Of a stretch of 64,000 nucleotides of DNA, positions 17,735 to 64,000 are shown piece after piece. Within the stretch, counting starts at the first letter, position 1; every line of letters starts with the position of its first letter. The stretch comes from Candidatus Magasanikbacteria bacterium CG11_big_fil_rev_8_21_14_0_20_39_34 (GTDB lineage Bacteria > Patescibacteriota > Patescibacteriia > Magasanikbacterales > UBA922): NCBI GenBank assembly GCA_002787355.1, contig PCWN01000007.1, forward strand, positions 315,552 through 379,551, given 5' to 3'. A program made the position numbers and the translations under genes. A model generated the notes under the pieces. It was not told where the DNA came from. It searched no databases and saw only the letters and a program-made list of their open reading frames with translations.

Positions 17735-17805
17735 TCGGGGATCGTCTAATGGTAGGACTCCAGGTTCTGGTCCTGGCTATCGGGGTTCGAGTCCCTGTCC
17801 CCGAG
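17735..17805 (+). tRNA. tRNA-Gln(CTG)
   Basis: Acceptor TCGGGGA/TCCCCGA, D-loop TAATGGTA, anticodon arm CCAGG-TTCTGGT-CCTGG, T-arm GGTTCGAGTCC; CCA not encoded. Confidence 0.96.
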
Positions 17806-59967: not shown

Positions 59968-61272
59968 CTACATGGACCAATACCGCATGCCCTCATCTTC
60001 AATGTCCTGCTTTGAATACAGTCTTTTGATATCTACCAAAAGAAGATTTTCATGATTCATAAGAGCACGCAGATCCTTTGGGGTCATGTCTTTATATTCA
60101 TCATGTGCCACGGCTACAATGAGAGTATCTGCATTCACAAGATCTTCTTTTTTGGCAAGATGAATTCCATATTCGTGAAAAACCTCTTGCTCATCTGCAA
60201 TAGGATCATAAACAATAGGTTCAACACCAAAATCTTTGAGTTCCAAAATAAGTTCCGCAACCTTAGAGTTTCGAATATCTTTTACATTTTCTTTGAAGGT
60301 AATTCCCAGCACAGCAAATTTGGATTTACTGACATCTTTGCCCACTCGTACCATTTCTTTGATAATAGACTGTGCTATAAACTTATGCATGGAATCATTA
60401 ATTCCACGACCAGCTAAAATCATCTCCGGACGATGTCCAACTTCTTGTGCCTTAAAAGTAAGATAATACGGATCCACACCAATACAATGTCCTCCTACAA
60501 GACCTGGCAAAAATTTTAAAAAGTTCCATTTGGTTCCTGCTGCATCAAGCACATCATAAACAGAAATATCCATCTTAGAAAAGAGCATAGCAAGCTCATT
60601 CATGAGTGCAATGTTGATGTCACGCTGAGTGTTTTCAATTACCTTTGCGGCTTCTGCTACCCGAATGGATGCTGCTAAAAAGGTATTGGTAATGGCACCA
60701 TATACCTGTGCAATGACGTGTGAACTTTCTGCATCGGAGCCTGAAACCACTTTGGTAATTTTATCAATGGTATGTTCTTTGTCACCTGGATTTACACGCT
60801 CAGGTGAATATCCTACCCAAAAATTTTTCTTATGTGTTAAACCAGAAGTCTTCTCAAGAAGTGGTACACAAATATCTTCCGTAACACCCGGATACACCGT
60901 TGACTCAAACACAACAATGCTCCCCGCAGCCATGTTTGCTCCCACCATTTCACTGGCTCTTTTTACAATACCAAGGTCTGGAATATTATTTTTGTCTACC
61001 GGGGTTGGAACCGCCACAATAATGTAGCGCGCCTCTGAGATTCTCTTTTGATCACAGGTATAGTCCAACTGTACGGCTTTCAACTCATCTGAGGTAAGTT
61101 CATTCATCCTATCATACCCGGTTTTGAGTTGTTCTATCTTTTCTTGATCAATATCAAAACCTATCACATCAAAATGTTTTGCCAAAAGAACCGCCAGAGG
61201 AAGCCCAACATACCCAAGGCCTACCACACAAAGTTTCTCTTGTTTTGATTGTAATTGTTCAAAAGTTACCAT
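59968..61272 (-). CDS. UDP-N-acetylhexosamine dehydrogenase (TviB/WbpO-like)
   Basis: GLGYVGLPLA, ESTVYPG, SPER, KVIENTQRD, GLVGGHCIGVDPYY. Confidence 0.93.
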   Translation of the reverse strand: MVTFEQLQSKQEKLCVVGLGYVGLPLAVLLAKHFDVIGFDIDQEKIEQLKTGYDRMNELTSDELKAVQLDYTCDQKRISEARYIIVAVPTPVDKNNIPDLGIVKRASEMVGANMAAGSIVVFESTVYPGVTEDICVPLLEKTSGLTHKKNFWVGYSPERVNPGDKEHTIDKITKVVSGSDAESSHVIAQVYGAITNTFLAASIRVAEAAKVIENTQRDINIALMNELAMLFSKMDISVYDVLDAAGTKWNFLKFLPGLVGGHCIGVDPYYLTFKAQEVGHRPEMILAGRGINDSMHKFIAQSIIKEMVRVGKDVSKSKFAVLGITFKENVKDIRNSKVAELILELKDFGVEPIVYDPIADEQEVFHEYGIHLAKKEDLVNADTLIVAVAHDEYKDMTPKDLRALMNHENLLLVDIKRLYSKQDIEDEGMRYWSM

Positions 61273-61406
61273 AATTTTTTTCTAATATGGAGATATTATA
61301 CATAGAATGATAAACCATTTCAAGCCCCCTCCATCAAATAGAGCTTTCCCAGACAAAGTACGATCCCTCTTCACAAAAGTGCCTAAATTGAGTACCATAG
61401 GGACAT

Positions 61407-62540
61407 ATGAAAATACTTTTTCTCATTACCAAAGCAGAAGTGGGGGGTGCACAAAAAATGACCCTCACCCTCTCCAAAGAGCTCAAACGTCGTGGCCATG
61501 AGGTCATGCTTGGTTTGGGAAAAAATACCGGAACTTTTTTGATTGATGAGCTTCAAAAAGAAGATATTCCCTTTCATACCTTTTCATACCTCTCAAGAAG
61601 CCTGAATCCCCTTTTGATTTTTCAATTTAAAAAAGAATTTTCTCAGTTTCTCAGTAAGAATTCTTTTGATGTTATTCATCTCAATAGCTCCAATACACTT
61701 CCCGCTGCAGAAGTTACGAAGAAAAAAAGTCCCAAAACAAAAACGGTGTTCACCTTTCGAGGGCTTTCCTATCTTGACCCGGGTTCAAAAAAATATCTTC
61801 TCAAATTCTTTTTTCAAAAATTTTATCTTCACTACCTCCCATTTATTGACCATCCCGTTTTCGTAAGTCAGACCAATCGTGAATATGCAAACAAAATTAA
61901 CCTCTGCAAAAGCCAAGAGGTTGTTTACAATGCTCCCGAAGTAGAATATCTCTCAAAACAGGAATCCGAGGAAGAACTTGAACGGCTTATCCATAAAGAA
62001 AAAGGATTTCTCAGAGAAAAACAAATTTTGGGATCCATAGGAAGGCTAGCATACCCAAAAAACTATGAACTTATATTCAAAGCCCTTCCAAAGCTTTTAC
62101 AGACAAATCCAAATATTCTGTTTTTTCTTTTTGGAAGTGGACCGGAATTTCAAAATTATCAGTCCATCATTCAAAAAGAAAATCTTTCTGAAAACGTTTT
62201 TATCCTCCAGGCGGAAAACGCTGCACAATACCTCAAGGGATTTCATATTTTTGTCCTCCCATCCCTCTATGAAGGGCTCTCGATTACACTCATTGAAGCG
62301 CTCCAAGCGCATATTCCCATAGTTGCCTCAGACGTAGGAGGAAGCCATGAAGTTCTCCATGATGATACAAATCAGCTCTTTGAAAGTGGTCATGAGACTG
62401 CTTTGTGTGAAAAAATAAAAGCATTTTTGGATAATAGAATGCTTTTTGAAGAAACTATAGAAAAAAACAAGGTTTTTTCAAAAGATTTTGGTGTCAAAAC
62501 CATGGTTGAGGATTATCTGAAAATATACACAAAAAAATAG
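61407..62540 (+). CDS. GT4 glycosyltransferase
   Basis: GGAQ, IGRLAYPKN, PSLYEGLSITLIEA. Confidence 0.92.
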   Translation: MKILFLITKAEVGGAQKMTLTLSKELKRRGHEVMLGLGKNTGTFLIDELQKEDIPFHTFSYLSRSLNPLLIFQFKKEFSQFLSKNSFDVIHLNSSNTLPAAEVTKKKSPKTKTVFTFRGLSYLDPGSKKYLLKFFFQKFYLHYLPFIDHPVFVSQTNREYANKINLCKSQEVVYNAPEVEYLSKQESEEELERLIHKEKGFLREKQILGSIGRLAYPKNYELIFKALPKLLQTNPNILFFLFGSGPEFQNYQSIIQKENLSENVFILQAENAAQYLKGFHIFVLPSLYEGLSITLIEALQAHIPIVASDVGGSHEVLHDDTNQLFESGHETALCEKIKAFLDNRMLFEETIEKNKVFSKDFGVKTMVEDYLKIYTKK

Positions 62541-62571
62541 CTAAAATAAGATAAAAAATAAATTACATCGC

Positions 62572-62595
62572 AAGGCCTTGAAAAAGGCCTTTTTT
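62572..62595 (+). terminator. Intrinsic terminator
   Basis: AAGGCCTT-gaaa-AAGGCCTT followed by a T-run. Confidence 0.75.
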
Positions 62596-62598
62596 ATA

Positions 62599-62627
62599 TT
62601 GACAAAAGGGTCTTTTTTTGCTACAAT
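62599..62627 (+). promoter_or_regulatory. Near-consensus sigma70 promoter
   Basis: TTGACA-17-TACAAT with extended -10 TG. Confidence 0.85.
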
Positions 62628-62633
62628 AGCCAG

Positions 62634-62913
62634 TTATTGTATATAGTGTACAATAGAGTGTTCTTTACAAAATCTCAGGCTCTACAGGTAGGAAAAAATT
62701 GATATGCTGTCAATTTTTTCCTGCCTAGCTCTCTCCGCTGTTGCGCGAAGGGCGGAAGTAGGGCTTGGGTCCCACAGCATGGGTCCTTCTCCGGTAATTT
62801 CTCCGGAGTGACGTTACCTTCCATGCACGGTAGTAATACTGGTGGGAAAAAGATGCAATGTGCGCTCTATCGGGAAAGGTGCCCGAGAAAGCGTAGGATA
62901 CAGGAGTCTTGTC
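62634..62913 (+). ncRNA. Candidate structured 5' leader RNA with boxA-like motif
   Basis: Serial hairpins with G-U pairs valid on the + strand; TGTTCTTTACAA at 62659-62670. Confidence 0.5.
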
Positions 62914-64000
62914 ATGAACCGGTTTTTCACCCTGGTGGCGGCCTGCCTTTTTTCGTTCCTCCTGGGCGGCTGCTTGCCGTCCTTGGAGGACGAGTGCAAC
63001 TCGGACCGGGACTGCCCCCGGTTCGCCGAGGGGGCGACCTGCCGAGTGGGCATCTGCCTGCTCGGCACGGACGCCGCCCCGACCGACGCGGCGATGAATG
63101 ATGATGGTGCGGACGGGACGAACGTCCCGACCGACGCCGCCACCGACGCCGCCACCGACGCCACCCCCGACGCGGCGATGCCCGATGCCGAGGTGCCCGA
63201 TGCCGAGGTGCCCGATGCCGAGGTGCCCGATGCCGAGGTGCCCGACGCCACCCCCGACGCGGCGATGCCCGACGCCGCACTGACCGATGCCGACATTCCC
63301 GATTCCTCGCCACCGTGCGAGGACAGTCCGTCCTTCGGGGCGGACTGTGAGACGGGGATGCCCGGCGCCTGCGCCATCGGCACCATGGAGTGTGAGCTCG
63401 GTGAGCTGGCCTGCGTGCCCGCCACCGAGCCCACCGACGAGGTGTGCGACGGCCTGGACAACGACTGCGACGAGCAGATCGACGAGGGCTTCGACCTGCA
63501 GGCCGACCCCAGCCACTGCGGCGCCTGTGGCCGCACCTGCTCCTTCGAGCACGCCACCCCGGCCTGCGTGGCCGGGGTGTGTCAGATCGAGCAGTGTGAC
63601 CAGGGGCAAGTCGATCTCGACGAGCGGCCCGACAACGGCTGCGAGTACCACTGCACGCCCACCCAGGAGGGTGAGGCGTGCGGCGATGAGATCGACAACG
63701 ACTGCGATGGCTCGGTCGACGAGGAGTGCGCCTGCGATCCTCACACCTTCCAGCCGGCCCCCTGCAACGCGCAGGGTGAGGTCGGCGCCTGCCGCAACGG
63801 CACCTCACGGTGCCAGAACGGCAACGGCTCGCGTGTCGTCTGCGAGCCGTCGCAGCCCCAAGACGAGGCCTGCGACGGTATCGACAACGACTGCGATGGA
63901 AGCATCGACGAGGGCCTGCGCAACGCCTGCGGTGAGTGTGGCGAGGTGCCCGCGGAGACCTGCAACGGTCGCGATGACAACTGCGACGGGCAGATCGACG
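62914..64000 (+). CDS. Myxobacterial-type Cys/Asp-rich lipoprotein with MopE-like repeats (partial, runs off window)
   Basis: AGGAG 7 nt upstream; MNRFFTLVAACLFSFLLGGC lipobox; four E.C.G.DN.CD..(I/V)D repeats; DPSHCGACGRTC; no stop in 362 codons; about 73-75% GC in sampled lines. Confidence 0.88.
   Translation, partial: MNRFFTLVAACLFSFLLGGCLPSLEDECNSDRDCPRFAEGATCRVGICLLGTDAAPTDAAMNDDGADGTNVPTDAATDAATDATPDAAMPDAEVPDAEVPDAEVPDAEVPDATPDAAMPDAALTDADIPDSSPPCEDSPSFGADCETGMPGACAIGTMECELGELACVPATEPTDEVCDGLDNDCDEQIDEGFDLQADPSHCGACGRTCSFEHATPACVAGVCQIEQCDQGQVDLDERPDNGCEYHCTPTQEGEACGDEIDNDCDGSVDEECACDPHTFQPAPCNAQGEVGACRNGTSRCQNGNGSRVVCEPSQPQDEACDGIDNDCDGSIDEGLRNACGECGEVPAETCNGRDDNCDGQID
63131..63272 (+). 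repeat. Coding tandem repeats
   Basis: CCCGATGCCGAGGTG x4 (63181-63240, PDAEV); CCGACGCCGCCA x2 plus a variant; duplicated 29-nt flank. Confidence 0.93.

Follow-up and report, generated by a model that had tools for sequence, protein, structure and literature searches.

The GC-rich gene and its structured leader

The window, a stretch of 64,000 nucleotides (G000:C4:315552-379551), belongs to a 1.18 Mb genome of approximately 38% GC that was detected in groundwater runs; we refer to this source genome as G000 and to that of a sister species as G001. The features of the locus described here lie on the plus strand. Its context upstream is a GT4 glycosyltransferase gene of a glycan locus (61407..62540), which is low in GC with a GC3 of 0.33. 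A terminator-like hairpin with a T run (62572..62596, −11.4 kcal/mol) would shield the downstream cassette from this gene. It is followed by a sigma-70-type promoter, TTGACA-17-TG-TACAAT (62599..62627), which is conserved in G001, and transcription is predicted to start near position 62633. The original prediction had called this promoter perfect; it is present and has a TG extension, but with 11 of 12 consensus bases it is near-perfect.

The leader begins with a weak hairpin at the boxB position (62635..62655, −4.9 kcal/mol). All eight of its pairs are kept in G001, two of them via a one-sided change, and a hairpin recurs at the same place across several orthologous leaders. The boxA (62659..62672) has the spelling of the lineage with a TTACAA core, reaches a matrix score of 13.8 and is a predicted NusB–S10 site; it begins 31 nt past the −10 element and is mostly unpaired in the folding ensemble. 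Folding places a multi-stem domain at 62673..62770, with a hairpin of 18 pairs, two of them G-U, at 62687-62725 (−22.1 kcal/mol) and another at 62734-62756 (−10.5 kcal/mol). Further hairpins are located at 62789..62808 (−9.6 kcal/mol) and, immediately 5′ of the ribosome-binding site, at 62861..62895 (−15.2 kcal/mol). All five hairpins, including the one of 18 bp with two G-U pairs, had been proposed at these positions, and each of them folds there. The GC content is indeed higher toward the Shine-Dalgarno sequence; the supposed gradual rise, however, is a step from 0.32 to 0.50–0.65 at approximately position 62720. The whole leader folds much better than shuffled sequences (z = −7.05; 0 of 200 shuffles were equal). 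As anticipated, it has no riboswitch or other Rfam match at gathering score, and 20 sub-threshold matches all fell below the family cut-offs. The sole Rfam match in the window is a tRNA at 17735-17805, which adjoins recombinase-like and LexA-like genes.

For the G001 leader, 40 pairs were tested and 79 of 80 cells are paired with five two-sided changes (33–46% paired in slid controls), a covariation that comes from two sequences from which the structure was itself partly derived and whose level is reached by 12 of 500 shuffles. The hairpin at 62687-62725 shows three two-sided and two one-sided changes in G001 with one of 16 pairs broken, and that at 62789..62808 one change of each kind; the inner five pairs of the hairpin at 62861..62895 are kept. 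The order of promoter, hairpin, boxA and long hairpin recurs among orthologous leaders. Homology with the G001 leader became apparent only once the ortholog had been located via its protein, and a BLAST search with the leader in 40 relatives returned promoter-sized pieces only.

The Shine-Dalgarno sequence AGGAG (62902..62906) is located 7 nt 5′ of the ATG of an 885-aa gene, and the base at −1 is C, in contrast to the native T. The gene occupies 62914..64000 and extends past the window to G000:C4:381122. It has a GC3 of 0.85 and encodes a Cys-rich predicted lipoprotein with a lipobox-like N terminus, nine MopE-type repeats and a C-terminal FGE-sulfatase-like domain. A CCCACC tail (G000:C4:381123-381135) and a hairpin lie 3′ of it. 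Contigs from two other DNA runs, covering window positions 60472-63184 and 61283-63184, run at flat depth from the low-GC gene through the leader into the start of the 885-aa gene; the junction is therefore real and no chimera. One 170-nt contig of RNA run X13 falls on 16 kb, inside the 885-aa gene (window positions approximately 63212-63381), and was left uncounted because the run was found using this gene and contigs can neither rank genes nor give the strand.

The boxA motif and its distribution

The 12-mer TGTTCTTTACAA at 62659-62670 is the single exact copy genome-wide. The 16S leader of the source genome carries TGTTCATTACAATT, one base different from the leader motif, which bears out the expectation that the motif would be common to the rRNA leaders. 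The 14-mer TGTTCATTACAATT also precedes two other top-GC genes on contig C11. The E. coli and B. subtilis boxA consensus sequences were taken from the accessible text of PMC13753749; the leader matches the E. coli boxA given there, UGCUCUUUAACA, at 9 of 12 bases, compared with 11 of 12 for the 16S site of its own genome.

To avoid circularity, a boxA matrix was trained on the 16S leaders of 29 relatives with G000 excluded; it was seeded with an E. coli-type sequence, and 5 of the 29 training sites look off register. The 16S leader site of G000 scores 20.1 with this matrix, and the leader site, at 13.8, ranks 22nd in the genome. Among 2,356,486 positions, eight sites score at least 16; four of them belong to GC-rich gene leaders and three to rRNA leaders, and one lies within a gene. 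A score of at least 13 is reached by 31 sites genome-wide, and those near 13.8 are mostly genic chance matches. In G000, the 23S leader contains boxA twice. In most 16S leaders of the family (L009, L020-L048), the full boxA comes third, after a short TACAA-like element close to the start and a conserved, terminator-like A-rich/U-rich stem.

The distribution of the motif was analysed with gene calls from a simple caller of our own, using leaders of at least 80 nt and defining genes as GC-rich (GC3 at least 0.55) or ordinary (GC3 below 0.45), with those at 0.45–0.55 omitted. In G000, 5 of the 43 GC-rich leaders had a site of at least 12, compared with 1 of the 416 ordinary leaders (p = 3 × 10−5), so that the predicted enrichment upstream of GC-rich genes is observed. 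With 300 column-shuffled matrices, the mean was 0.17 and the maximum two GC-rich leaders, and none of the matrices reached five. Eight relatives, represented by partial sequence of approximately 1.4 Mb picked around known islets or large contigs, had such a site in 12 of the 67 GC-raised leaders and in 10 of the 567 at baseline (p = 2 × 10−7; since kin are not independent, the enrichment p values are overstated). On the antisense strand of the same set, boxA occurs in 0 of 67 GC-raised and 9 of 567 baseline leaders.

An exact 12-mer in two spellings was searched in 106 family genomes, and 92 of the 96 sites outside G000 among the matches listed were classified. These comprise 47 leaders, 27 genic, 13 other intergenic and 5 rRNA sites, 65 being non-genic; for the 47 leader sites among the matches listed, the downstream gene has a GC3 of at least 0.45 in 32 cases and a Shine-Dalgarno sequence in 35. 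An exact boxA also precedes low-GC genes in L167 (G105:C10) and L132 (G002:C3), which we take to be mraZ and infC. MopE-type repeats were found in 53 of 107 family genomes. For 14 long repeat-rich homologs of the 885-aa protein, the leader contains a site of at least 12 in seven and of at least 8 in ten cases, and the four leaders without boxA include one at a contig end and one within an operon.

Genes behind a boxA are longer and more GC-raised than other members of the GC-rich class (median length 280 versus 192 aa, p = 0.004); a hydrophobic N terminus is present in 11 of 17 of them versus 36 of 93 other members. As boxA was found in only 5 of 43 GC-rich leaders, the class can do without it. 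Members without boxA include a PBP1a operon (G000:C8:40439-44355) and a lone response-regulator receiver (C11:128850-129221). A structured leader of 500 nt at G000:C11:64684-64188 (L050) has a second boxA-like site approximately 66 nt past the first, and the two cassettes on C11 have a duplicated segment in common, upstream of boxA.

A single site with the modest score of 13.8, in a genome with 31 sites of at least 13, might resemble boxA by chance within a structured 5′ UTR of the ordinary kind, or the leader might be the UTR of a donor that arrived by recent import. The enrichment, the strand bias and the conservation of the element argue against both. Outside relatives of the 885-aa protein are distant, the closest being mostly Myxococcota with best segments of 29–43% identity, and their leaders are of a different kind: none of the 44 leaders from myxobacterial-like homologs reached a boxA score of at least 12, and BLAST of the leader against 73 such loci gave no match. 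Among 16S leaders of myxobacterial-like genomes, 13 of 18 contain a TGAAA core, and none scores at least 12. There was also no match of the leader among 50,697 phage records. The donor's own UTR, named beforehand as a source that would speak against the proposal, was accordingly not found in these searches. Furthermore, the orthologs of G000 and G001 share 50% identity and have almost saturated four-fold sites (0.55 versus an expected 0.44; 0.35 versus 0.28 for 55 ordinary genes), yet their GC3 values are 0.85 and 0.92. A recently imported islet with a donor UTR was rejected on the grounds that no close donor and no donor-type signals were found and that synonymous sites are near saturation. 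We consider chance resemblance or a donor UTR very improbable and already largely refuted. Judged by its sequence, the 12-mer is the rRNA boxA of this lineage in the cell's own spelling rather than the myxobacterial one. On the same grounds, the leader signal belongs to the cell itself and the high GC of the gene is maintained, so that the gene, initially described as foreign-looking, is not a recent import.

Nus factors and synthesis of the message

The nusB gene, a search for which had been proposed, is present in the genome, and NusB was found in 38 of 41 genomes, NusA and NusG in five of five each, and a SuhB-like IMPase family member, whose SuhB role is putative, in four of five. A putative gene for S10 (rpsJ) was identified by its place after tuf and by its sequence. 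Rho was detected in none of 41 relatives and in none of 301 genomes of the class in a search whose control was positive in 9 of 14 cases. As no Rho turned up in these 301 genomes, the element does not serve Rho antitermination. Terminator-like sites 3′ of boxA, even weak ones, occur in 3 of 17 leaders and not in the leader under study. A leader–trailer helix of the rRNA type showed no preference for the cognate partner (residual +2.0, SD 5.0, n = 17), and the boxC candidate AATGTG at 62858 is not conserved in G001. Given the absence of Rho in the searches, terminators in 3 of 17 leaders and no leader–trailer helix, neither Rho escape nor rRNA-type processing fits. Of the rRNA-style antitermination signal first proposed, the boxA stands, but antitermination in the Rho sense does not.

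Protection of a long untranslated leader against premature termination, with the cell's own ribosomes translating cotranscriptionally, would be the classical role of boxA. The available part of PMC13753749 reports that the rrn-type complex moves NusA and hinders intrinsic termination, and the greater length and GC of the boxA genes would also agree with such protection. The failure to find Rho in 301 genomes and the scarcity of terminator-like sites, none of which lies in this leader, speak against it, and we regard classical antitermination as improbable here.

Other functions of the Nus complex are known from E. coli. As far as the accessible texts go, it chiefly helps rRNA to fold via a boxA–polymerase loop (PMC4807359), it suppresses pausing and doubles speed (10.64898/2026.03.17.712431), and it represses translation in cis up to 100 nt away, or approximately 200 nt at lambda N (PMC5725501). 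By analogy, the boxA of the leader would load NusB–S10, NusA and NusG onto RNA polymerase, which would then elongate faster and unpaused. The complex may help the GC-rich message to fold and may silence translation in cis, so that ribosomes would be kept away during synthesis. The stable untranslated mRNA would be released and read later via its own Shine-Dalgarno site, by default in a subsequent round by ribosomes of the same cell. GC-rich coding regions do fold better than synonymous shuffles in their first 600 nt, with a mean z of −2.6 for 22 genes versus −0.5 for 25 random ordinary genes; the values are −1.7 for the 885-aa gene and +0.7 for the gene with a perfect boxA at C11:65295. Taken together, the E. 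coli precedents, the folding of GC-rich coding regions and the traits of boxA genes suggest a folded message whose synthesis is uncoupled from translation. With moderate confidence, we propose that the boxA of the leader likely loads Nus factors, by which a GC-rich message would be made fast, folded and ribosome-free in a cell without detected Rho. Given the E. coli work, as far as described in the available text of PMC5725501, it was reasonable to suppose, as had been done earlier, that transcription proceeds here without coupled translation.

The arrangement of a hairpin and a boxA behind a strong promoter, with a long structured RNA 3′, resembles the rrn boxB-boxA-boxC leader with its complex of NusA, NusG, NusB, S10, S4 and SuhB. 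Unlike the rrn leader, it heads an mRNA in a lineage without detected Rho and has no conserved boxC or leader–trailer processing helix. A boxA within the 5′ UTR is also known from E. coli suhB, C. koseri CKO_00699 and lambda nutL-N, where, in the accessible part of PMC5725501, either repression is followed by Rho termination or phage N is required. Approximately 200 nt of structured RNA separate the site from the Shine-Dalgarno sequence at lambda N, according to the same partial text, compared with 255 nt in the present leader. In contrast to these mRNAs, no Rho was found here, the promoter is near-consensus and boxA serves a class of GC-rich, envelope-type genes that spans the family. The boxA leaders of CRISPR arrays, as cited in the available text of PMC13753749, likewise place a non-rRNA boxA on a long untranslated stretch, but there it serves Rho escape and the transcript is noncoding.

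Start signals and the reader of the message

Native and GC-rich genes differ in their start signals. In G000, a Shine-Dalgarno sequence precedes 78 of 932 native genes, which equals background (49, 73 and 71 in control windows), versus 24 of 31 GC-rich genes. Native genes start at U-AUG, with T at −1 in 83% of 754 genes in G000 and 81% of 1103 in the eight relatives and a Shine-Dalgarno sequence in 7%. GC-rich genes have T at −1 in 9% of 35 (G000) and 13% of 67 (relatives) and a Shine-Dalgarno sequence in 83–84%. In G000, 28 of the 40 GC-rich genes have a CCCACC tail within 50 nt past the stop, compared with 1 of the 979 other genes; the tail was also seen in G001 and G015 and is rare in six of the eight relatives. 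Bacteroidota initiate independently of Shine-Dalgarno sequences and keep the anti-Shine-Dalgarno while their native genes ignore such sites. The present lineage differs in that a second gene class uses Shine-Dalgarno sequences and native genes use U-AUG; bS21, a short gene that is easily missed, was not found in the G000 genome.

The two start dialects raise the question of who translates the GC-rich messages. In one tentative reading, which we consider possible but doubtful, a Nus-made, folded and untranslated mRNA would enter a diderm host, plausibly a myxobacterium, and be translated there, so that parasite lipoproteins and outer-membrane proteins would be placed in the host envelope. Several observations are consistent with export: the start dialects, the CCCACC tail of GC-rich genes, the closest protein relatives being mostly Myxococcota, GC3 values held at 0.85 and 0.92 in orthologs near four-fold saturation, and a VirB4-like ATPase in five of five genomes. 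The VirB4-like ATPase gene of G000 (C1:13237-15117) lies approximately 6 kb from a GC-rich boxA gene (C1:21119-23548) whose 809-aa protein belongs to no known family.

Export is also favoured by a predicted outer-membrane barrel. The gene at G000:C11:65295-67112 (L050:3499-5313, minus strand), preceded by a boxA with the same sequence as the 16S site, encodes a signal peptide, TSP3 repeats and a predicted C-terminal barrel; its G001 ortholog (L329:543-2333, 31% identical) also ends in a predicted barrel. Omp85/BamA was found in 0 of 107 family genomes. Against this weighs that the barrel comes from low-confidence Atlas models (TM 0.6–0.69, pLDDT 0.55–0.56) and that the gene was seen in 2 of 240 genomes. 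A PF13505 search gave one weak match in 107 genomes and none in G000, leaving the barrel undetected, and a homolog search with the C-terminal part of the protein returned only the query itself.

Other data argue that the cell can read these messages itself. The anti-Shine-Dalgarno sequence is intact in all 13 16S ends seen (no end was obtained for 17 of 30 loci), which excludes a degenerate one. In these 13 ends (L009 and relatives), the sequence after the anti-Shine-Dalgarno can fold back onto it; that it would stay folded back for want of YbeY was ruled out, YbeY being present in five of five genomes. Lgt was found in 38 of 41 genomes and LspA in five of five, and 41 tRNAs cover all codon boxes, so that the cell is able to make and lipidate these proteins and neither absent lipoprotein machinery nor missing tRNAs can serve as a case for host translation. 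The GC3 of the islets tracks the baseline of each genome (0.27–0.38 at a baseline of 0.14, 0.5–0.95 at 0.30), and codon use is mixed, with Gly, Val and Leu toward myxobacterial and Pro and Ser native-like. The scarcity of the CCCACC tail in six of eight relatives and the lack of a precedent in the literature likewise count against export. RNA folding alone could account for both the high GC and the Shine-Dalgarno requirement. The proposal that the mRNA is not translated by its own ribosomes has circumstantial support, from start dialects, folding and a barrel without Omp85, and faces the real counter-evidence of an intact anti-Shine-Dalgarno, Lgt, LspA, tRNAs and GC3 tracking the baseline.

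In the main texts of the mostly open-access papers that were searched, we found no report on boxA-led mRNAs, on loss of Rho with NusB kept or on GC-rich Shine-Dalgarno-led genes in Patescibacteria. Gene transfer in this group is covered by PMC12455944, whose accessible part does not describe the boxA/Shine-Dalgarno pattern, and PMC12641178 contains no Nus or Rho terms. The boxA/Nus element as such is known; its occurrence in a conserved leader of the rRNA type that heads mRNAs, in a lineage with no Rho detected, is new.

A tiny, host-dependent groundwater bacterium has placed the start signal of its rRNA genes ahead of a few GC-rich protein genes. Such reuse of the rRNA Nus signal on an mRNA class, in a lineage without Rho, offers a natural setting that isolates the non-antitermination roles of Nus factors that have long been argued, namely folding, pause suppression and translational silencing. 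The boxA leader also provides a sequence marker for genes likely acting at the parasite–host interface. It is conceivable, though we would not expect it, that the family writes two kinds of mRNA, U-AUG messages for its own ribosomes and boxA-launched, GC-rich and tightly folded Shine-Dalgarno messages, synthesized in the manner of rRNA, that would be passed to a diderm host. The ribosomes, Sec and BAM of this host would then build parasite lipoproteins and outer-membrane barrels from bacterium-to-bacterium mRNA effectors. If true, mRNA would be handed from one bacterium to another for translation, and the leader gives a concrete way to ask whether this occurs.
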